A stretch of 64,000 nucleotides of DNA from positions 69,192,001 through 69,256,000 of the forward strand of contig JANJGN010000007.1 of NCBI GenBank assembly GCA_026770705.1, in the 5' to 3' direction. The notes beneath the pieces are model-generated. The model ran no database searches. It worked only from the letters and a program-made list of their open reading frames with translations, and was not told the origin of the DNA. Source of the DNA: Isurus oxyrinchus. Lineage: Eukaryota. The translations under genes and the position numbers were made by a program. Positions 6,860-56,149 of the stretch are shown here, piece after piece. The stretch's first letter is position 1. The number at the start of each line of letters is the position of its first letter.

Positions 6860-7890
6860 ATACGAACAAGGTGCAGGAGTAGGCTGTTTGGCCCTTCGAG
6901 CCTGTTCCACCATTTAATAAGATCATGGCTAATTTGATAGTAACCTCAAATCTGCATCCCCCTTTCCCCGATAACCTAACACCCCCTTGCTTACCAAGAA
7001 TCTATCCATCTCTATCTTAAAAATATTCAAAGACTTTGCTTCCATTGCCTTTTCAGGAAGAGAGTTCCAAAGACTCATAACCCCCCGAGAGAAAAAAATT
7101 CATCTCATCTCTGTTTTAAATGGGTGACCCCTTATTTTTAAACAGTGACCTCTAGTTCTAGATTCTCCCACAAGAAGAAACCTCCTCTCTATATTCACCC
7201 TGTCAAGTCCCCTCAGGATCTTACATGTTCCAGTCAAGTCACCTCTTACTCTTCTAAACGCCAGTGGATACAAGCCTAGCCTGTCCAACCTTTCCTCATA
7301 AGACAACCCGCCCACTCCAGGTATTAGTGTGGTAAATCTTCTCAGAACTGCTAACGCATTTACATCCTTCCTTAAATAAGGTGACCAATACTGTACACAG
7401 TACTCCAGATGTGGACTCACTTGCCAAAATGGACAATTTCACATTTTTCCATAATATACTCCATTTGCCAGATCTTTGCCCACTCACTTAACCTATCCAT
7501 ATATGTTTGTAGCCTCCTTATGTTCCCTTCACAAATTACTTTCCTACCTATTTTTGTCTTATCTGCAAATTTGGTAACCATCCCACCCATCCTTTCATCC
7601 AAGTCATGTATATAAATTGTAAGCAATTGAGAACCCAGCAGTGATCCCCATGGCATACCACTCATTACACCTTTGGCAACCTGAAAAAGACCCATTTATG
7701 CCTACTGTGCTTCTTGCTAGCCAGCCAATCTTCTATCCATGCCAATATGTTACCCCCTATATCATGAGCTTTTATTTTCTGCAATAATCTTTGATGTGGC
7801 ACCTTATCAAATGCCTCCTGGACATCCACCAGTTCCACTTTATCCACAACACATGTTGCACCTTCAAAGAACTCCAATGAGTTGGTTAAA
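6860..7890 (-). mobile_element. CR1 LINE 3' fragment
   Basis: Broken RT: AFDKVPH, KFADKTK, PHLEYCVQYWSP, followed by 3' UTR. Confidence 0.9.
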
Positions 7891-8349
7891 AATATCAGTG
7901 ACTGCAGAAGTTGCATGGTGAATGGAAATGCCAAACATTTTGGCATTTGGATGAACATTTTGTTCCAGGGATAAATGTAGAGGAATGGTGTTGGAAGGAG
8001 ATAAGCAGTTGTATGTGGTGAAGGAAAAGGGGAAGTGATTGGAAATGGCCTTACCTATGATTGAGACCATGGAAGTAGAGAGGCCCCAAAAGAAAGCAAG
8101 CTCAAGGTGGTAGCCATAAATATGGGTAGGAGAGCGGCTGTCAATTGAAGAAAAAAAGGATGAGCTGTATGGAGATGAAGATCAACATCATTGGAACGAG
8201 GAGTTACTGAGGAAGGAAAGGAAAGCTATCCTAGGGCAGTGCTGTAAGGTGCTAGGTAACTATTTTTTGGTCATAGGTTGAACAACTCTGTTTTGCTTTG
8301 ATGTTGATGCAATTGCCCAACACTGACATTCCAATTGCCTCACAACTGT

Positions 8350-8632
8350 ACTGCAGGCATTCACCAAGTATCTTTAGACAGCACCTTCCAAACCCATGAC
8401 TGCTACCATCTAGAAGGACAAGGGCAGCAGATGCATGGGAACATCACTGCCTGGAAGTTCCCCTACAAGCCACTCACCATCCCGACTTGGAAATATATCG
8501 CCGTTCCTTCACTGTCACTGGGTCAAAATCCTGGAACTCTCTCCCTAACAGCACTGTGGGTGTACCAAGACCACATGGACTGCAGTGGTTTAAGAAGGCA
8601 GCTCACCACCACCTTTTCAAGGGCAACTAGGG
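8350..8632 (+). mobile_element. HER1-like LINE 3' fragment
   Basis: Reverse-complement match to 27450-27780 and 41600-41900. Confidence 0.8.
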
Positions 8633-9215
8633 TTATTTCTGACTTAAATTAAACTACTCTTGTGGGCAGTCCTTCTAACATATAATTCTGGTTGACTGTC
8701 GAGCCCTGAGAAGTAAATTATTTACAGAAACAGAATTACCTGGAAAAACTCAGCAGGTCTGGCAGCATCGGCGGAGAATAAAAGAGTTGACGTTTTGCGT
8801 CTTCATGACCCTTCGACAGAACTTGATTTCGAGTCCAAGAAAGAGTTGAAATATAAACTGGTTTAGGTGTGTGTGTGGGGGGCGGAGAGATAGAGAGACA
8901 GAGAGGTGGGTGGGTGTGGTTGTGTGGACAAACAAGCAGTGATAGAAGCAGATCATCAAAAGATGTCAGCGACAATGGTACAATAGAACACATAGGTGTT
9001 AAAGTTAAAGTTGGTGATATTATCTAAACGAATGTGCTAATTAAGAATGGATGGTAGGGCACTCAAGGTACAGCTCTAGTGGGGGTGGAGGGAGCATAAA
9101 AGATTTTAAAATATTTAAAAACAATGGAAATAGGTGGGAAAAGAAAAATCTATATAATTTATTGGGGAAAAAAAAAGGGGGAAAACAGAAAGGGGGTGGG
9201 GATGGGGGAGGGAGC

Positions 9216-11030
9216 TCACGACCTAAAGTTATTGAATTCAATATTCAGTCCGGAAGGCTGTAAGGTGCCTAGTCGGAAGATGAGGTGTTCCTCCAGTTTG
9301 CGTTGGGCTTCACTGGAACAATGCAGCAAGCCAAGGACAGACATGTGGGCAAGAGAGCAGGGTGGAGTGTTAAAATGGCAAGCGACAGGGAGGTTTGGGT
9401 CATTCTTGCGGACAGACCGCAGGTGTTCTGCAAAGCGGTCGCCCAGTTTACGTTTGGTCTCTCCAATGTAGAGGAGACCACATTGGGAGCAACGAATGCA
9501 GTAGACTAAGTTGGGGAAATGCCGCTTCACTTGAAAGGAGTGTTTGGGCCCTTGGACGGTGTGGAGAGAGCAAGTGAAGGGGCAGGTGTTACATCTTTTG
9601 CGTGGACATGGGGTGGTGCCATAGGAGGGGGTTGAGGAGTAGGGGGTGATGGAGGAGTGGACCAGGGTGTCCCGGAGGGAGCGATCCCTACGGAATGCCG
9701 ATAAGGGGGGTGAAGGGAAGATGTGTTTGGTGGTGGCATCATGCTGGAGTTGGCGGAAATGGCGGAGGATGATCCTTTGAATGCGGAGGCTGGTGGGGTG
9801 ATAAGTGAGGACAAGGGGGACCCTATCATGTTTCTGGGAGGGAGGAGAAGGCATGAGGGTGGATGCGCGGGAGATGGGCCGGACACGGTTGAGGGCCCTG
9901 TCAACGACCGTGGGTGGAAAACCTCGGTTAAGGAAGAAGGAGGACATGTCAGAGGAACTGTTTTTGAAGGTAGCATCATCGGAACAGATGCGACGAAGGC
10001 GAAGGAACTGGGAGAATGGGATGGAGTCCTTACAGGAAGCGGGGTGTGAGGAGCTGTAGTCGAGGTAGCTGTGGGAGTCGGTGGGTTTGTAATGGATATT
10101 GGTGGACAGTCTATCACCAGAGATTGAGACAGAGAGGTCAAGGAAGGGAAGGGAAGTGTCAGAGATGGACCACGTGAAAATGATGGAGGGGTGGAGATTG
10201 GAAGCAAAATTAATAAATTTTTCCAAGTCCCGACGAGAGCATGAAGCGGCACCGAAGTAATCATCGATGTACCGGAGAAAAAGTTGTGGAAGGGGGCCGG
10301 AGTAGGACTGCAACAAGGAATGTTCCACATACCCCATAAAGAGACAGGCATAGCTGGGGCCCATGCGGGTACCCAAAGCCACACCTTTTATTTGGAGGAA
10401 GTGAGAGGAGTTGAAGGAGAAATTGTTCAACGTGAGAACAAGTTCAGCCAGACGGAGGAGAGTAGTGGTGGATGGGGATTATTCGGGCCTCTGTTCGAGG
10501 AATGCCCTCAGACCATCCTGGTGGGAATGGAGGTGTAGAGGGATTGGACGTCCATGGTGAAGAGGAAGCGGTTGGGGCCAGGGAACTGGAAATTGTTGAT
10601 GTGACGTAAGGTGTTAGAGGAATCACGGATGTAGGTGGGAAGGGACTGGACAAGGGGAGAGAGAAGGGAGTCAAGATAACGAGAAATGAGTTCTGTGGGG
10701 CAGGAGCAAGCTGAGACGATCGGTCTACCGGGGCAGTTCTCTTTGTGGATTTTGGGTAGGAGATAGAAGCGGGCCGTCCGAGGTTGGGCGACTATCAGGT
10801 TGGAAGCTGTGGGAGGGAGATCCCCAGAGGAGATGAGGTCAGTGACAGTCCTGGAAACAATGGCTTGATGTTCAGTGGTGGGGTCATGGTCCAGGGAGAG
10901 GTAGGAGGAAGTGTCTGCGAGTTGACGCTCAGCCTCCGCGAGGTAGAGGTCAGTGCGCCAGACAACAACAGCACCACCCTTGTCAGCGGGTTTGATGACA
11001 ATGTCAGGGTTGGACCTGAGAGAATGGAGT
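9216..11030 (-). pseudogene. Penelope RT/GIY-YIG ORF, 5'-truncated, frameshifted near 10503
   Basis: Motifs IKPADKGG, LPKIHK..PGRPIVS, TMDVQSLYT, GVALGT, RYIDD, LPFLD, and GIY-YIG NLVYCIRCSQCGLLYIGETKRKLGDRFAEH. Confidence 0.92.
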
Positions 11031-12354
11031 CCCCACCAGGATGGTCTGAGGGCCCTTAGCTTCTTCCTCGAACAGAGGCCTGAATAATCCCCATCCACCA
11101 CTACTCTCCTCCGTCTGGCTGAACTTGTTCTCACGTTGAACAATTTCTCCTTCAACTCCTCTCACTTCCTCCAAATAAAAGGTGTGGCTTTGGGTACCCG
11201 CATGGGCCCCAGCTATGCCTGTCTCTTTATGGGGTATGTGGAACATTCCTTGTTGCAGTCCTACTCCGGCCCCCTTCCACAACTTTTTCTCCGGTACATC
11301 GATGATTACTTCGGTGCCGCTTCATGCTCTCGTCGGGACTTGGAAAAATTTATTAATTTTGCTTCCAATCTCCACCCCTCCATCATTTTCACGTGGTCCA
11401 TCTCTGACACTTCCCTTCCCTTCCTTGACCTCTCTGTCTCAATCTCTGGTGATAGACTGTCCACCAATATCCATTACAAACCCACCGACTCCCACAGCTA
11501 CCTCGACTACAGCTCCTCACACCCCGCTTCCTGTAAGGACTCCATCCCATTCTCCCAGTTCCTTCGCCTTCGTCGCATCTGTTCCGATGATGCTACCTTC
11601 AAAAACAGTTCCTCTGACATGTCCTCCTTCTTCCTTAACCGAGGTTTTCCACCCACGGTCGTTGACAGGGCCCTCAACCGTGTCCGGCCCATCTCCCGCG
11701 CATCCACCCTCATGCCTTCTCCTCCCTCCCAGAAACATGATAGGGTCCCCCTTGTCCTCACTTATCACCCCACCAGCCTCCGCATTCAAAGGATCATCCT
11801 CCGCCATTTCCGCCAACTCCAGCATGATGCCACCACCAAACACATCTTCCCTTCACCCCCCTTATCGGCATTCCGTAGGGATCGCTCCCTCCGGGACACC
11901 CTGGTCCACTCCTCCATCACCCCCTACTCCTCAACCCCATCCTATGGCACCACCCCATGCCCACGCAAAAGATGTAACACCTGCCCCTTCACTTGCTCTC
12001 TCCACACCGTCCAAGGGCCCAAACACTCCTTTCAAGTGAAGCAGCATTTCCCCCAACTTAGTCTACTGCATTCGTTGCTCCTAATGTGGTCTCCTCTCCA
12101 TTGGAGAGACCAAACGTAAACTGGGCGACCGCTTTGCAGAACACCTGCGGTCTGTCCGCAAGAATGACCCAAACCTCCCTGTCGCTTGCCATTTTAACAC
12201 TCCACCCTGCTCTCTTGCCCACATGTCTGTCCTTGGCTTGCTGCATTGTTCCAGTGAAGCTCAACGCAAACTGGAGGAACAACACCTCATCTTCCGACCA
12301 GGCACCTTACAGCCTTCCGGACTGAATATTGAATTCAACAACTTTAGGTCGTGA
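11031..12354 (+). pseudogene. Penelope RT/GIY-YIG ORF, second inverted copy, frameshifted near 12050
   Basis: ORF 11136-12119 is identical in translation to the left copy until KQHFP, then shifts frame. The native stop is TGA at 12352-12354. Confidence 0.92.
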
Positions 12355-12756
12355 GCTCCCTCCCCCATCCCCACCCCCATCCCCACCCCCTTTCTGTTTC
12401 CCCCTTTTTTTTCCCAATAAATTATATAGATTTTTCTTTTCCCACCTATTTCCATTGTTTTTAAATATTTTAAAATCTTTTATGCTCCCTCCACCCCCAC
12501 TAGAGCTGTACCTTGAGTGCCCTACCATCCATTCTTAATTAGCACATTCGTTTAGATAATATCACCAACTTTAACTTTAACACCTATGTGTTCTATTGTA
12601 CCATTGTCGCTGACATCTTTTGATGATCTGCTTCTATCACTGCTTGTTTGTCCACACAACCACACCCACCCACCTCTCTGTCTCTCTATCTCTCCGCCTC
12701 CCACACACACACCTTAAACCAGTTTATATTTCAACTCTTTCTTGGACTCGAAATCA

Positions 12757-12795
12757 AGTTCTGTCGAAGGGTCATGAAGACTCGAAACGTCAACT
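12757..12795 (+). ncRNA. minimal type I hammerhead ribozyme-like motif in the Penelope 3' repeat
   Basis: AGTT-CTGTCGA-a-GGGTC atgaa GACTC-GAAA-CGTC-AACT: stem I, core, stem II, GAAA, palindromic ACGT, GUC site. Other copies at 8785-8823(-, mutated), 15521-15559(-), 15628-15666(+), 30787-30825(+), 34359-34396(-). Confidence 0.7.
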
Positions 12796-13389
12796 CTTTT
12801 CTTCTTCGCCGATGCTGCCAGACCTGCTGAGTTTTTTCAGGTAATTCTGTTTTTGTTTTGGATTTCCAGCATCCGCAGTTTTTTTGATTTTATCGAAGTA
12901 AATTATTTGCCTGACCTTGTTGTGGGACCATTGAGAAATCTTAATCTTAAATCATTAGTCTAGCTTAGTTCTACTGTGCTACCATGAAGCCTTAGTTTCC
13001 CCATGCCCCTTCACTCCTTCAAAACTATAGTTAAAGCAGAGGAGAAATGGAAGCAAACAGGGCAGTAAAAAATAAAAGATTCACCACTTCCCTCAGATAA
13101 AATGCATTATTCTGATCTGAACGGCAGAAACTGATACCCTGGCAGTGTTTTCTTGTAATGTTCGCTTGCCTTGTAGATTATCCATATGGCCCCACCCTGC
13201 CCTCCGAGCTTTGTAATAAGTGTTACAATTTGGATAATTCACTTCATCTGTGCTTGTTTGGCTCTTAAAAGACAGCTGCTAACTAATTTAAATAACATTG
13301 CAGTTATGCTGTAACATCAATACAGATCTAACCTATCTCGTCTGAACTAGAACAACTGTGAATAGCAAGAACTGGGACACATGAACTCA

Positions 13390-14718
13390 TTAGAATCATA
13401 GAGGTCTACAGCACAGAAAAAGGCCCTTCAGCCTATCGCGTCTGCACCAGTCAAACAAGTACCTGACAATTCTAATCCCATTATCCAGCACTAGGCTTTG
13501 AATGCCATGGCATCGCAAGTGCACATCCAAATACTTCTTAAATGTTATGAGGGTTTCTGGTTCTACCACCCTTTCAGGCAATGAGTTCCAGATTCCCACC
13601 ACCCTCTGGGTGAAAACATTCTTCCTCACATCCCCTCTAAACCTCCTGCCCCTTACCTTAAACCTATGCCCCTGGTTATTGATCCCTCCACCAAGGGGAA
13701 AAGTTCCTTCCTATGCCCCTCATAATTTTATATACCTCAATCATGTGTACCCCCCCCACCACCAATCTCCTCTGCTGCAGGGAAAATAACCCCAGTTTGT
13801 CCAATCTCTCCTCATAGAAAACTCTCCAGCCCAGGCAACATTCTGGTAAATGTTCTCTGCACTCTTTCCAGTGCAGTCACATCCTTCTTATAATGTGGAT
13901 TCCTGAACTACATGCAATACTCTAGCTGTGGCCTAACCAGCATTTATACAATTCCAGCATAACCTCCCTGCTCTTATATTCTATGCCTTGGCTAATAAAG
14001 GCAAGTATCCCATATGCCTTCTGAACCACCTTATCTATCTGTCCCACTACCTTAAGGGACCGGTGGGCATGCACACCCTCGGTACTTGCCAGGGTCCTAC
14101 CATTCATCGTGTATTCCCTGCCTTGTTTGTCCTATCCAAGTGCATCATCGCACACTTATCCGGATTAAATTTCATTTACCACTGATCAGCCCATCTGACC
14201 AGCCTGTGTACATCCTCCTGTAATCTAAGGCTATCCTTCTCACTATTTACCACCCTACCAATTTTCATGTCATCCGTGAACTTATTGATCAACCCTCCTA
14301 CATTCAAGTCTAAATCGTTTATATATACCACAAACAGCAAAAGACCCAACACCAATTCCTGTGGAACCCCACTGGACATAGGCATCCAGTTACAAAAACA
14401 CCCCTCAACTATCACCCTTTGCTTCCTGCCACTCAGCTAATTCTGGATCCAATTTGCCAAATTGCCTTGGATCCCACGGGCCCTTACCTTCATTATCAGT
14501 CTCCCATGCTGGACCTTATCAAAAGCCTTGCTGAAGTCCACGTAGACTACGTCAAATGCCCTCATCTACACACCTGGTCACCTGTTCGAAAAATTCAATC
14601 AAAATGGATATAACTTCCCCTTAACAAAACCATGCTAACTGTCCTCGATTAACCCCTGCCTCTTTAAGTGTAGATTAATTCTGACCCTCAGAATTGCTTC
14701 CAATAGTTTCCCCACCAC
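13390..14718 (-). mobile_element. CR1 LINE 3' fragment
   Basis: SGVPQ..LG.LLF..YINDL, KFTDD, and [13 protein letters not shown], followed by 3' tail. Confidence 0.9.
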
Positions 14719-15390: not shown

Positions 15391-15478
15391 GTAAGGAGTT
15401 AGTCAACAGCTTTCACATGAGTAGATGACACAGAATAACACTGCAAAAGAGTTTCAGCTCAACCCAACAATAAACATG

Positions 15479-15764
15479 GAAAAACTCAGCAGGTCTGGCA
15501 GCATCGGCGGAGAAGAAAAGAGTTGACGTTTCGAGTCCTCATGACCCTTCGACAGAACTTGATTTCGAGTCCAAGAAAGAGTTGAAATATAAGCTTATAT
15601 TTCAACTCTTTCTTGGACTCGAAATCAAGTTCTGTCGAAGGGTCATGAGGACTCGAAACGTCAACTCTTTTCTTCTCCGCCGATGCTGCCAGACCTGCTG
15701 AGTTTTTCCAGGTAATTCTGTTTTTGTTTTGGATTTCCAGCATCCGCAGTTTTCTTTGTTTTTA
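15479..15764. mobile_element. short palindromic Penelope 3'-end insertion
   Basis: Perfect palindrome 15477-15710 centred on AAGCTT, plus a 3' tail. 15-bp TSD ccaacaataaacatg at 15464-15478 and 15765-15779. Confidence 0.92.
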
Positions 15765-17881
15765 CCAACAATAAACATGTTTGCTTTAGGTATGGTGGAC
15801 CAATGATAAATTGCTGTGTCGCAGAGGAAAACACAAAATCCTATACATTATTTTAGTGAGTGAAGCTGACCCAATTACTTTAAAGATTAAAATGAGGGCA
15901 CTAACATTTATTGCTGGGTTTCTGTGTAGCATTGTTGTTCAACTTGTAAATGCAGTCTGTTAAATTATAGCTCCTTTACCATGATTTAACAGTTAAACAG
16001 AAACATTATGGAAGGATTACCCTCCTGTATCAAATAATTTGTAGGCTTACCTACTACCCGTTAGGAGAAGTAGCAAATTTTGTTCACTTGCTGTCTGCCT
16101 GCTTAGAGACCTCTCATGCCAGCTCTTAAGAGTTGGAAGGAAGGCATGGAGCCAAGGCACACAGTTAGTTTGTCTATGAGTGGCTGTTATTATAGGAGAG
16201 CACATCAACATTCTTTACTGTTTCTACAGAGTGCAGTACCTTAGAGCATGACTTTTCCTATTTAGTCATATGACTGGATATCTGATAATGTTGTTGTTCT
16301 CCTTCCACAGGCATTCCTATTAATAGATGGTTCCAAGAATTCTAGTTGTTGACTGTGTAGCTGTAGGCAGTAAGATGAGATTTTATTTGCACAGTGTGGG
16401 TATAAGAGTGGAGTGGATATAGATTCCAAATTAATTTGAGTGCTGCAACACAAGCAATGTGTTTTATTCTATAGTACAGTCACATTAACTTTAGTTAATT
16501 AGGGTTTGATTCTAGAGTGTGTCAATCCCCCGGTGTCCAAGGAAGATTTTGCTGGAAAAGGTGCTTGGGTCCTGTGGAGTTACTGCTCCCGATTAATTTA
16601 AAACTAAATCACAGAATTGCTACCCGGTTATCTTTACCCCTGCCCTGCATGTGCTTATTTAAGAATTAATGGAGTTGGTGGGTTACTGAGATTCAAATGC
16701 TGGGGAATGTTCCATGAAATTTCATTTGTGCCACTTCCTGTGCCACATTGAATTTATGTTGACTTGTTCCTGCTCACTCCATGGTCTCAGGTTTGATCCT
16801 CGGTTTGTGCTAACTTTTCTGACCTTGGGTTGCACAGCAGTGAGGGTGCTTTAGGAGGCACCTTGTGTCCTGGTCAAGAGTTTCCACTCCTGGCCACTAT
16901 GCAGTGACTGTGTGGAAAGTGAAATAAATGTGTGTCCCATCAACCCAGGACTAACTAAAGGAAAAGCCTCTTTGATGGTTCATAGTTTATCCAGTGAGTA
17001 TCTCATCCATACAGAGCAGAAAATCCTATTTTTGATCCTCTGTACCTGCTGGGCAATAGTAGGACTGGGACATTGACACTTGGGTGGGTTGACCACCATC
17101 TACTGACTTCTATTGGACCTATGCATGAGAAATGTCAGCTTAGGACATAGTTGGGCTTGTTTGCAGTGCTCCTTATGACTGAATTGCCTATCAATACTCA
17201 TTGTCAAGCTTCACATATGAATAATGGCCACTTTGGTGAGTTCTGGAGGGGAGGACATGGAGATCAACTATGAAAATTTACAACATTTATTTAATTTCAG
17301 TGAGATGCATTACAGGTGTGTTTTTTTTTCCTTTATGGTGGTTTTCATTTTGCAATTATTGTCATATAGAATGCATAGTGAAGCTTTAAAATTGAGTACA
17401 TTGAAGAATACTGAAATCAATATATGCATGTACATGAGGTGAAGAGAAGAAGAGCGTTGGCACCTGTATTAGCCATGGAATTAGAATGAGGCTCCTTGAT
17501 GCTGGCTTCAGTCACAACCTGCTTGTACTTACATAAAGAGCTTCGTCATTCACAGGGAAAACCAGAGCCTGTGTTTTGTAACCAAATCATGTAATATTGC
17601 ATTGAACACCAACAATTCCAGCTTGATTATGGGAACTGGAGTTGTGTAAATTTATGAAGAAACTTTCTTCAGTGCCACGCCAGTTGTCTTTGGCTAAAAG
17701 AGTTTGGTTGGAGGGTTTGGAAAGAAACCTTGTCCTCACAAAGAATGGAAAAAGAAATCAGCCATGCATGTCAGTCATGGTTTGACCGGAGTATTACTAG
17801 GGTGCTAGTGCTAGTGAGTGAATACTCCAGCACAGTGTCTGTTCTTGTACTGCTGTTCCAAAAGCTTCACTTTTATTTCAG

Positions 17882-18947: not shown

Positions 18948-19068
18948 TACAATATAAAATAAAAACAAAGTGCTGCAAATACTCAGCAGGTCTGGCAGTG
19001 TCTGTGGAGAGAGAAATAATCTAGCATTCCGAATCAAATATGACTCTTCTATGGAACTCCCTTCTATC
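18948..19068 (-). mobile_element. old Penelope-type 3' tail fragment
   Basis: ctcagcaggtctggcag motif. Candidate 12-bp TSD ttctaccttcaa at 18936-18947 and 19069-19080. Confidence 0.65.
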
Positions 19069-30170: not shown

Positions 30171-30784
30171 CAATTTCTTACCTAGTAGAGACTGTAATCC
30201 TAGCTCTAAACAGGCTGGCGGACTGCAGCATTTTATTAACATCACTATTGAAAGTCTTTTCACTCAGTTGGCAGTTAGCCTATGTTATAAATGTTAAATG
30301 TCTAAAACTACAAAAAAAAAGCTGCAGTGCAAAAGAGGTGGGTTGATGGCAGGGTCTGTAGAGAGGTGCATGGCAGAACACACAATTTTCAATGTATTAT
30401 TAACCCTAAGTGCCATGTAAAAACATGGTTCAAATCATACTCTTTAAGCATACTTTAAGCATATGACTAACTGTACTGAAAAAGAAAGGATCATTAAAGC
30501 ATAAATTCTAATAATGATGTATTGATAAAGATTGCCTCTATGTGCTTTTGTCACCAATAAAATGAGAGAGATGGGATGGGCAATAATTCTGTCACCTTAT
30601 TTCCTAATTACCCTCTTTCTTGATTCCATTCATCTGGGTAAAATGATGTTAACACCAGTATGAGTGCCATTAAGAAAGCTCTTTTACTTGGTGAATGTCA
30701 TATAACATAATAAACAGGTCACCAATGCATCTGAAGATCAGTTTTTGTAAATCAATATTTTGAAGGCCAAGATAAGATATGCTT

Positions 30785-30923
30785 CAAGTTCTGTCGAAGG
30801 GTCATGAGGACTTGAAACGTCAACTCTTTTCTTCTCCGCTGATGCTGCCGGACCTGCTGAGTTTTTCCAGGTAATTCTGTTTTTGTTTTGGATTTCCAGC
30901 ATCTGCAGTTTTTTTGTTTTTAT
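30785..30923 (+). mobile_element. Penelope 3' tail insertion
   Basis: Near-identical to 12755-12894. 13-bp TSD ataagatatgctt at 30772-30784 and 30924-30936. Confidence 0.9.
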
Positions 30924-30976
30924 ATAAGATATGCTTTGTTTTTTAAATGTGGCTTGACCACGGACCACCTAAATAT

Positions 30977-32819: not shown

Positions 32820-35260
32820 TTGACCCAAGTGGATCAAATAACAGTGGGAGAGCATTTAGGGGACAGTGACCATTGTATCATTGGGGTTTAGGTTGGTCAT
32901 GGAGAAGGACAAGGAGCAATCCAGAGCAGGGATAATTAATTGGGGGAAAGCAAACTTTGATGGAATGAGAATGCGCATGAGTCAAGTGAGTAGAATCAAA
33001 TGTTGGCAGAAAAGATGCTGGCTGAACAATGGGCTACCTTCAAAGACGTAATATTACAAACAATGTCAAGGTATATTCCCTTGAAAGGGAAAGGTAGGAC
33101 AATTAAATCTACAACACCCTGGATGATGAGAGAGAGATAGAGGTGGATGAAAAGGAAGGAGTACGTGTGTGACAGATGTCTGGTTGAAAATACAATGGAG
33201 AATCAGGCTGCATATAGAAGGATCAGAGGGGAAATCAAAAAACTAATCAGAAAAGCAATGAGGGAGCATGAAAAGAGACTAGCAGCTATCATAAAAGGGA
33301 ATCCCACGATCTTTTATAAGCATATAAATAATGAAAGGGTGGTAAAAGAAAGGGTAGGGCCAATTAGGGATAAAAGAGGAGACTTGCATTTGGAGGCAGG
33401 AGAAGTAGCAGAGGTATTAAATGAGTACTTTGCATCTGTCTTTACAAAGGAAGGGGATGAGAGAGGAGGTAACTGGTACACTCGAGGAATTTATAATTAA
33501 GGAGGAGGTATTAGAAAGGCTATCTTTACTTAAAGTTGATAAGGTACCAGAACTGGATGAGATGCATCTGAGGATACTGAGGGAGGTGAGATGGAAATTT
33601 CAGAGGGACTGGTGATAATCTTCCAGTCTTTCTTAGACACAAGGGTGCTGCTGGAGGACTGGAGAATTGTGAATGTTATACGCTTGTTCAGAAAGGGGTG
33701 CAAGGATAATGCCAGCAACTACAGACCAGTTAGTTTGACTTCAATTGTAGGGAAACTTCTAGAAACTATAGTTCGGGACAAAATCAATCGTCAAGTGACA
33801 GGTGTGAGATATTTATGGAAAGCCACCATGGATTCATTATGGGGAAATCATGTTTAACTAACTTGCTGGAACTTTTTGAGGTAACAGAGAAGGTTGATAA
33901 AGGCAATGCTGTTGATGTGTATATGGATTTTCAAAAGGCATTTGATACAGTGCCACACAACAGACTTGTGAACAAAATTCTAGCTCATGGAATTAAGGGG
34001 AAAATAGGCACTTGGATAAGAAATTGGCTGAATGACAGGAAACAGTAGTGATAAATGGTTGTTTTTCAGCTTGGAGAAGGTTTGTGGTGAAGTTTCCCAG
34101 GGGTTAGTGTTGAGACTCTTGCTGCTCTTGATATATATTAATGACCTAGATTGTGGTGTGCATGCAGGATTTCAAAATTTGCTGATGATATGAAGATTGG
34201 AAGCAATGTCAATTGTGAGGAGGATAGTCTTGAATTTCAAAAGGACATAGACATATTAGTGGTTAAAGCAAAGTACAGTGGATGCTGAAAATCTAAAAGA
34301 AAAACAGAAAACATTGGAAAAGCGCAGCAAGTCTGACAGCACCTGTGGAAAGAAAAACAGTTGACATTTAGAGTCTGTTTGACCCTTCTTCAGATTGAAA
34401 AAGGGTGATATGGACATGTTGGTGGATTGGGCAGACAAATGGCAGATGAAGTTCAATGCAGAGAAGTGTGAGGTGATTCATTTTGGCAGGAAGTGTGTGG
34501 AGAGACAGTACAAAATGAAAGGAGTAACTCTCAAGGAGGTGCAAGAACAAATTGACCTTGGTGTATATGTATATAAGTCATTGAATGTGGCAGATCATGT
34601 TGAGAGAACAATTAATAAAGCATATAGTATCCTAGGCTTTATTAATAGGGGCATTGAGTACAAGGGTGAGCAGGTCATGTTAAACTTGTGTAAGACACCA
34701 GTTAGGCCTCATCTGGAGTACTGCGTCCAGTTCTGGGCTCCATACTTGAGGAAGGATGTGAAGGCATTGGAGAGAATACAGAGGAGATTCACAAGAATGA
34801 TCCAAGGATGAACAACTGTAGCTATGAGGATAGATTGGAGAGGTTGGGTCTGTTTTCCTTGGAGAAAAGAAGGCTGAAAGGAGACTTGTTAGAGGTGTTC
34901 AAGATCCTAAAGGGCATGGACAGGGTAAATAGCGAGAACCTGTTCCCACTCAAGAATACATCAAGAGCGAGAGGGAACAGATTCGAAATAATGGGCAAAA
35001 AGGAGTATAAGTGATGTGAGGAAAATTTTTTTCACCCAGAGGGTGGTTGGAGCTTGGAACGAACTTGCTGAAAGGGTGGTGGAGGCAGGGTTGATTGAGG
35101 TATTCAAAGGGGAATTGGATTGCTATCTGAAAAGGAAGAATGCACAAGGCTACGGGGACAAGATAGAGAGTGGGATTAGGTAGAACGCTCTTTCAGCGAG
35201 ACAGTGCAGACTCGATGGGCTGAATAGCCTCCTTCTGCACTGTCAAGATTCAGTGATTCT
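32820..35260 (+). mobile_element. CR1 LINE ORF2 remnant with a nested Penelope tail (~34264-34405, -)
   Basis: NYRPVSLTSIVGK, YMDFQKAFDTVPH, RPHLEYCVQFWAP, and 3' tail. Confidence 0.92.
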
Positions 35261-54687: not shown

Positions 54688-55372
54688 TTTTTTGTCCGTA
54701 AGCATTACCCAGACCTCCCTGTCGCTTGCCATTTCAACACTCCACCCTGCTCTCATGCCCACATGTCCATCCTTGGCTTGCTGCATTGTTCCAGTGAAGC
54801 TCAACACAAACTGGAGGAACAGCACCTCATCTTCTGAGTAGGCACTTTACAGCCTTCCGGACTGAATATTGAGTTCAACAATTTTAGATCATGAACTCTC
54901 TCCTCCATCCCCACCCCCTTTCTGATTTCTCCCCCCCCTTTTTTTTCCAATAATTTATATAGATTTTTCTTTTCCCACCTACTTCCATTATCTTTAAATG
55001 TATTTCTATCCATTGTTTTATCTCTACCTTTTAGCCTTTTTTTGATTCCTTCACCCCACCCAACCCAACTAGGTCTATCTGTACCTTGCTTGTCCTGCTT
55101 TCTACCCTTAATTAGCACATTCCTCAGATAATATCACCACCTTCAACACCTCTTTGTCCTTTTGTCTGTGACATCTTTTGGTTATCTCCACCTATCACTG
55201 GCCCTCTATCCAGCTCTACTTGTCCCACCCCCCTTAAACTAGCTTATATTTCACCTCTCTTCTATTTTTACTTAGTTCTTTTGAAGGGTCATTCGGACTT
55301 GAAACATTAACTGTTCCTCTCTGCAGATGCTGCCACACCTGCTGAGTTTTTCCAAATATTTTTGTTTTTGAT
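54688..55372 (+). mobile_element. older 5'-truncated Penelope copy
   Basis: GIY-YIG C-terminus (VRKHYPDLPVACHFN...GLNIEFNNFRS*), 3' UTR and decayed hammerhead motif. 11-bp TSD taagatgaata at 54677-54687 and 55373-55383. Confidence 0.88.
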
Positions 55373-56149
55373 TAAGATGAATAGCACCATCAGTTTGGGA
55401 ATGCAGTCATTGATTGTGTCAATGCACGACTAGTGGGAGCCCAAACTTCAGCCACAGCTCAAAGTGTAAATGTGCCTTGGATTATGAGGAAAGGTTAAGG
55501 AGACCCTCAGTGCCAGCATTGATTGGAAAAGGGGACAGTGCAAGGTGACCTAATTCAAGTTGATGGTCTAATTCAAATTTCCCAGATTACTGAGGGAATT
55601 AACATGGTTGATAGTGGCAAATCATTAACAATGATGGTAACTATGGATTTAAAAACCAGCCATGAAATTTTAAACTTTGGAAGACAGAGCTAAGACAGTA
55701 AGTGAGGTGAAACCTCCATTATTGGGTAGTAGAGTTGTGGGATAGTTTACTGAGAAGATTAAAGAATTGAACAATACCAGAAGTAATCAAACCTGTTTTT
55801 TTGGCAGTGACTTTTTACCAGCAGTGCACAGATCACACCTAGTGTCTGGAACTCAGCAAGTTAGGGGAGGAGAGTGCACAGCAGGAAATCATTGTGGTCT
55901 GAAACTGATTGAACAATAAAAGGGGAAAGTGTCAAGGCTGAAGTCAGCCATTGGTGGAGGCATGCCAATTCAGAAGGAACTCCTTGAAACTACTGTTACT
56001 GATAGGGTTGGGGAAAAAGAAGTTGCTGAAGGTTCCTCTCAATGGGGGAGAAGCTGCAATATCACCCAACTCATCCCAGGGAGAAGGGCCAGGAACTGGG
56101 AAAGGAGCATCAACTGCAGCATATAGAGCACCCATTTACAGCTGAACTT

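Follow-up and report, generated by a model that had tools for sequence, protein, structure and literature searches.

At positions 8710–12908 of a 64,000-nucleotide stretch of Isurus oxyrinchus DNA (GenBank assembly GCA_026770705.1, contig JANJGN010000007.1, positions 69,192,001 to 69,256,000 of the forward strand; hereafter the window, in whose coordinates all positions are given) lies an inverted insertion of a Penelope-like element (PLE), and it is the origin of its two arms that concerns us here. Two 5'-truncated copies are joined 5' to 5' at 11030/11031 inside a single 14-bp target-site duplication (TSD), just where a first-pass annotation of the sequence had put them. The TSD is the AT-rich 14-mer GAAGTAAATTATTT, whose left copy (8710–8723) and right copy (12895–12908), both read on the plus strand, are identical at 14 of 14 positions; it occurs only twice in the window, and a match of this kind has a chance probability of about 1e-5 when a boundary slack of 30 x 30 nt is allowed. 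Next to the left copy stands the left arm (8724–11030, minus strand, 2,307 nt), which is tail-less and whose 3' end corresponds to right-arm position 12856, and next to the right copy ends the right arm (11031–12894, plus strand, 1,864 nt), which alone carries a 38-nt tail (12857–12894). The arms are 97.5% identical in an alignment of 1,828 columns and have diverged by 0.9% substitutions. The left arm reaches 504 nt further at its 5' end (10527–11030), so that the earlier estimates of about 0.5 kb for this excess and about 37 nt for the extra tail were very nearly exact. Given a tail on the right only and 504 nt of 5' sequence on the left only, neither arm is contained in the other, and the accompanying claim that simple fold-back of one cDNA cannot yield the present geometry is borne out.

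The junction was placed by comparing the arms and by a loose contig end at 11030 (in sequencing run X4, described below), beyond which the family sequence continues differently from the right arm. There are no inserted bases and 0–1 nt of microhomology, the T at 11030 being the sole base assignable to either arm, and the homology available for snap-back priming is likewise 0–1 nt in both directions, the loose end included. No palindrome was found at 11030/11031, and when the junction ends were folded as DNA no terminal snap-back resulted. An unrevised fold-back of a single cDNA is thus ruled out, since the arms are non-nested and the turn offers 0–1 nt of homology. Junction palindromes have prompted the proposal that synthesis primes itself on an antisense template where there is a palindrome, the tail arising as the endonuclease resolves the product (PMC3846280), and another copy in the window, at 15.5 kb, does have such a palindrome; we nevertheless regard this route as very improbable for the present copy, because its junction offers neither palindrome nor homology, because nested arms would be expected, and because in vitro PAc (Poseidon, Anolis carolinensis) worked from sense RNA and was primed by the target (PMC11167929). 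A 7-nt motif at the left-arm 5' end that is also found just upstream of the right-arm 5' end (null P 0.003–0.016, post hoc) was set aside because it is not repeated in six other joints, where the longest match is 3–5 nt.

As for the element itself, its translation identifies the insertion as a PLE with a GIY-YIG endonuclease, that is, of the canonical endonuclease-bearing (EN+) type. One open reading frame (ORF) codes for a reverse transcriptase (RT) and then a C-terminal GIY-YIG endonuclease, with YIDD upstream of GIY-YIG in the translation, and the Pfam GIY-YIG match (E=1.6e-4, 22.3 bits) falls slightly below the cut-off of 22.6. The best preserved part is an open stretch of 420 aa in the left arm (9216–10478, minus strand), which runs through YIDD, the thumb, a C-x4-C-x2-C linker and the C-terminal endonuclease with two Cys and two His flanking GIY-YIG (CCHH, judged by eye); the 504 nt peculiar to this arm (minus strand), which form the spacer of the inverted repeat, hold the N-terminal region of the RT with a DKG motif, likewise judged by eye. 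Beside the spacer's base (10503–10526, minus strand) alignment reveals two lesions of the left arm, namely a net loss of 9 nt at 10503 and, near 10526, a frameshift of 1 nt, and in the right arm the ORF is broken by frameshifts and by a stop codon at 11085 that is common to both arms. With motifs defined as in PMC8557442 (a CX2-5CxxC Zn-finger linker, DKG and CCHH), the linker, which both arms carry, would place the element, here called Neptune-type, in Neptune or Nematis, two clades that the linker does not separate. The microsatellite target bias of these clades is not seen in the three young copies in the window, all of which have AT-rich non-microsatellite TSDs of 13–15 bp, though the bias is a tendency only and n=3. 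A sequence search of PDB gave 0 matches for the element protein. All three insertion hallmarks of EN+ PLEs are present, namely a one-sided tail of 38 nt, an inverted truncated arm and a TSD, here of 14 bp, and the locus is an ordinary dead copy that is a real member of a published insertion type.

Ends, joints and alleles in the reads

Positions 10527–14500 of the window were compared with four of 24 sequencing runs, of which X2 and X4 are contigs from one sample of organism A, possibly the organism from which the window comes, X12 comprises contigs of organism B, and X23 consists of raw reads of organism B, about 3% of which were read. The organism B pieces listed begin at 13010, to the right of the TSD. 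The tail end, the right TSD and the right flank are real: a 506-nt contig found in both X2 and X4 matches 12865–13370 with 0 differences and covers all three. The flank from 13144 to 13370 also exists in a second version, about 92% identical, in organisms A and B (in A on a 1,284-nt contig), perhaps from a paralogous site that lacks the insertion; of the two, the contig with the insertion is the less deeply covered, at 16.8 vs 30.1 in X2 and 16.4 vs 21.6 in X4.

In the raw reads of organism B the loose 3' ends of the family fall into two recurrent classes. Taking the three 3'-end rows among the 24 listed of about 9,800, 3,726 of 17,340 ends (21%) lie at 12859, with low flank agreement (0.36), and the other 13,614 lie at 12884 and 12894, the end of the tail. 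The left arm, ending at the equivalent of 12856, is 3 nt from the recurrent end at 12859 and belongs to the tail-less class. The first-pass annotation had itself raised the objection that the shortening of the left end might be a later deletion, and we judge this unlikely because the end sits at a recurrent class. The tail repeats, in diverged form, the U-rich unit before it, the two standing in tandem at 12826–12894, and both recurrent family ends lie in or beside U-rich runs. In addition, loose ends at 12894 run on into coherent sequence (agreement 0.44), which suggests tandem read-through.

Among the 15 joints listed (1,266 more exist) are three head-to-head junctions of other copies, 10587/12816, 10928/12573 and 10997/12564, whose 5' ends are 1.8–2.0 kb apart and whose homology is 0–2 nt. 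Their contigs in organism A have depths of 145–205, compared with 16–17 for the single-copy flank contig, which amounts to about ten copies each in a listing biased to the deepest. Some inverted junctions seem to be amplified, by re-transposition or segmental duplication. The joints 10554/12106, 10960/11513 and 10672/12708 were not counted as head-to-head, their orientation not being stated, and a joint from 10527 to 11031 reported on opposite strands (3,772 reads) was rejected as junction support, since it reflects colinear family reads crossing the cut in the compared stretch.

Such copy numbers speak in favour of one further origin, the re-copying of an older inverted locus, in which a transcript begun close to the outer end of the inverted arm and continued through the junction into the sense arm would give one RNA, one cDNA and a single round of target-primed reverse transcription (TPRT) from the tail, the junction being simply inherited. 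We think this distinctly improbable, because it pushes the junction's origin one step further back, because a 4.2-kb RNA with complementary arms of 1.8 kb would presumably be a poor template, and because nothing indicates that the junction at 11030/11031 is multi-copy.

The alleles of the two arms tell a related story. Our account uses 40 listed differences from the family, with 498 more existing. Twenty-one of those listed are in the right arm at sites where 93–99% of organism B reads have another base; 6 of the 21 are private to that arm and 15 are common to both. Eight of the shared alleles are frequent in organism A and mark a subfamily, and the other seven are uncommon there too (88–99% of reads have another base), the stop codon at 11085 being one of them. 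Furthermore, 11–12 nt near 12050, just upstream of the CCHH motif, are present in the family and missing from both arms. These shared rare alleles and the shared deletion therefore point to one source or to later conversion, and they disfavour two unrelated RNAs as templates; two RNAs from one locus are compatible with them. The proposal of two RNAs in the first-pass annotation thus went further than the alleles show.

Later conversion is itself probable. Between 11082–11938 (plus strand) and the matching 9628–10484 there are 0 substitutions over 857 nt, as against 15 in the outer 918 nt, and this tract is the largest gap among 17 substitutions (P=0.0004, largest-gap test); in the outer part the arms differ by 1.6%. 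The identity is probably the product of arm-to-arm conversion in a transposon-made inverted repeat, with assembly polishing as the alternative. Of the seven rare alleles that the arms share, five (11995, 12004, 12457, 12723 and 12778), together with the deletion near 12050, lie outside the homogenised tract.

Other copies in the window

There are two inverted copies in the window, one non-nested, described above, and one nested. The latter (15464–15779) has a 15-bp TSD, arms identical over 120 nt and a tail on the right, and its arms meet without a spacer at the palindrome AGCT, with 4 nt of homology; its left end has 2 nt of target–RNA homology, and on the tail-less side it ends about 19 nt upstream of where the main copy does. 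At an AGCT joint of this sort two identical cDNA ends could anneal, while a single end could hardly fold. A third young copy (30772–30936), flanked by a 13-bp TSD, consists of one tailed arm, and its 5' end is at the upstream edge of the hammerhead-like motif discussed below (equivalent to 12754).

Elsewhere, older 3' fragments of related Penelope-like families, 70–75% identical and without inverted partners, lie at 54693–55396, 34270–34394 and 18951–19058, the fragment at 19 kb being flanked by a 12-bp direct repeat. Fragments of high-copy repeats stand on either side of the insertion (7665–8640 and 13320–14500), and their translations resemble what we take to be pieces of CR1-type LINE RT.

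Origin of the two arms

What, then, made this insertion? Two nick-primed cDNAs are its likeliest origin, yet this copy does not require them, and with the one-source and the two-separate-RNA forms taken together we would put the chances somewhat above even. The first-pass annotation had held that the geometry seems to need two cDNAs, which identifies the best explanation and overstates its necessity, given that a later asymmetric deletion or a re-copied inverted locus would give the same shape. That both nicks primed reverse transcription, as was also claimed, is plausible, since PAc cleaves and extends both target strands in vitro (PMC11167929), and it too is not forced by this copy.

The particular form that we favour, a head-to-head insertion by double TPRT at both nicks with RNA of one source, comes close to an even chance. 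Here the GIY-YIG endonuclease would nick both strands, 14 nt apart; the 3' end on the bottom strand would prime a cDNA of 1,864 nt at the start site at the tail end, and the 3' end on the top strand would prime a second one, of 2,307 nt, at a start site 38 nt upstream. The truncated cDNA ends would then be joined almost bluntly, with 0–1 nt of homology, and fill-in would create the TSD. For both cDNAs the template would have been RNA from one source locus that had not been cleaved at the hammerhead, copied either by two RTs working in tandem on one RNA through strand displacement, with the upstream, tail-less one ahead, or on two units of one tandem transcript; with the tail-less RT running ahead, the tail-less arm would be expected to be the longer, as it is here. 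Afterwards the arms would have diverged to their present 0.9% and the inner 857 nt would have been homogenised. We infer both primings in this one event, and likewise the number of RNA molecules.

Several observations support this reading. The polarity of the arms is that which TPRT from each nick would give, and the arms are non-nested; the end of the left arm matches the tail-less class in the raw reads of organism B; and the three other head-to-head joints also have very unequal 5' ends with hardly any homology. The junction likewise offers snap-back priming next to no homology, and the AGCT joint of the nested copy would suit two identical cDNA ends better than one folded end. From published work, PAc begins reverse transcription at two sites between which the tail lies, without a strand difference, and is predicted by AlphaFold2 (AF2) to form a dimer (PMC11167929), and a tail is found at either end of PLE insertions (PMC8557442).

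Other observations weigh against it. The in vitro data come from a Poseidon-clade element, and the main text of PMC11167929 does not draw a model of joined cDNAs. Nesting is found in the one further inverted copy of the window, and the differing tail-less ends of the two inverted copies imply that the second start site is not fixed. The two small lesions of the left arm lie within 35 nt of the spacer, and, with the inner arms homogenised, a single locus cannot tell the original geometry from later remodelling. Finally, the central junction appears in none of the 24 pieces listed of about 440,000. One might therefore suspect that a repeat of such very high copy number was mis-joined or wrongly polished, all the more because the 857-nt identity could itself be polishing and because inverted PLE structures are hard to assemble (PMC8557442). 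Such an artefact is scarcely credible, however, as the TSD is exact on both sides, the right junction is matched with 0 differences, and the arms have retained alleles that are private or rare instead of those of the family majority.

A more serious contender starts from a nested palindrome, either a fold-back of the tailed bottom-nick cDNA or a perfect palindrome like the 15.5-kb copy, which later lost at least 504 nt of the right-arm 5' end by asymmetric deletion; on such an origin the present shape would be silent on the number of cDNAs. Indeed, about 35% of mouse offspring show central rearrangement of long perfect palindromes, for the most part through asymmetric deletion (reviewed in PMC8701086), and in our case the centre was evidently processed later, as the homogenised tract and the lesions at 10503 and 10526 attest, and nesting without any spacer is what the window's second inverted copy shows. 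The difficulty is that a fold-back copy must then end precisely against the TSD and at the tail-less position that recurs in the family, which is possible only via a second endonuclease cut, as suggested in PMC8557442, and the tail has since been tied to two RT start sites (PMC11167929). In addition, a deletion that takes right-arm sequence only and leaves the left arm intact is one special case. On balance we consider this origin unlikely.

Returning to two primed cDNAs, one can ask how far the idea might be extended. In its general form, a dimeric enzyme would start reverse transcription from each nick, with one subunit per start site, and then join both cDNAs, and head-to-head Penelope insertions would be what it normally makes; junction palindromes would be the annealing points of two identical cDNA ends and not self-priming sites; and in its boldest form separate RNAs would be held together by an uncut, non-catalytic hammerhead dimer. 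We offer this as a doubtful proposal. A joined two-cDNA model for PLEs was not found in the literature searched, although older reviews by Arkhipova and Evgen'ev may hold one; a search on Penelope and twin priming gave nothing on PLE insertion structure by title or abstract, and the text supplements of PMC11167929 contain no match for such a model, while its supplementary figures may bear on novelty.

The hammerhead-like motif and known systems

The right arm contains a minimal type-I hammerhead-like motif at 12757–12796 (plus strand), found by manual pairing, with a 4-bp stem I, the core CUGUCGA, a bulged A and a 5-bp stem II; the palindrome ACGU takes the place of helix III, and cleavage is predicted after 12792. 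The copy of the motif in the left arm differs by two substitutions, and a search of Rfam did not detect a hammerhead. The motif resembles the minimal hammerheads of metazoan PLEs (PMC4209133) in its type-I layout, in the extra base between positions 9 and 10.1 and the G–C closing pair, in the palindromic 15.2–16.2 in place of helix III and in its position in the 3' terminal repeat. It differs from them in its non-canonical U at core position 6, shared by all three young copies in the window, and the hammerhead here is a predicted one.

Both arms continue beyond the predicted cut, for 64 and 102 nt, and the template RNA was therefore uncut at the hammerhead. This matters for the idea of a dimeric ribonucleoprotein with two separate RNAs paired via a dimer-dependent hammerhead, in which each nick would copy its own RNA. 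Two templates are the simplest source of overlapping arms, PAc is a predicted dimer, and the motif, with its palindromic ACGU, is of the minimal kind proposed to act as a dimer (PMC4209133). Set against this, the rare alleles are shared over the full length of the arms, also outside the homogenised tract, so that one defective locus would have to be the origin of both RNAs; the RNA was uncut; hammerhead cleavage is dispensable in vitro for PAc (PMC11167929); and tandem copies can supply the hammerhead dimer in cis (PMC4209133). Separate paired RNAs thus seem quite unlikely, and the hammerhead, which the first-pass annotation had enlisted in their support, lends them none on the last three of these counts. 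A fold of two hammerhead regions with RNAcofold (–32.3 vs 2 x –14.2 kcal/mol) did not produce the dimer and is uninformative.

The architecture itself is already published as typical of PLEs: an adjacent inverted, 5'-truncated copy with a 30–40-bp tail at either end, by a mechanism called undefined, is described in PMC8557442, the same architecture with 9–10-bp TSDs in PMC3846280, and the inverted form is the most frequent in D. virilis (PMC2377424). Our copy shares with canonical EN+ insertions (D. virilis Penelope, A. vaga Pen2a_Av and Naiads) the head-to-head arms within one TSD, the one-ended tail, the AT-rich target and inverted repeats of variable size (PMC8557442, PMC3846280, PMC2377424); unlike them, it has two arms that are both long ORF fragments, without an internal pseudo-long-terminal repeat (pLTR) or tandem unit, a junction without a palindrome, and a TSD of 14 bp rather than the 8–10 bp of the A. 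vaga examples. With PAc in vitro (PMC11167929) it has in common two 3'-end classes one tail apart, an AT-rich target, a left target end without homology to the RNA start site, and RNA uncut at the hammerhead. [quoted passage not shown] The nearest mechanism, by analogy, would be L1 twin priming (bioRxiv 10.1101/2024.12.14.628481), where both target nicks prime cDNA and an inverted join forms within one TSD, a scheme that the geometry here fits, as it fits its rivals. In L1, though, the second primer lies upstream on the same RNA and the arms barely overlap, only one of them holding the 3' end, and so twin priming gives non-overlapping arms; here 1.8 kb is common to both arms, and each of them extends into the 3' end region.

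The first inference drawn from this locus was thus a reasonable one, which largely follows from published biochemistry. The published proposals for inverted PLE insertions differ, with antisense self-priming on one side and target priming on both strands on the other, and which arm of young copies bears the tail, the long or the short one, is a simple statistic that separates them. With some 65,000–108,000 3' ends and 14,000–23,000 copies of the ORF region in organism B (for an assumed genome of 3–5 Gb), this family is large enough for such a count.

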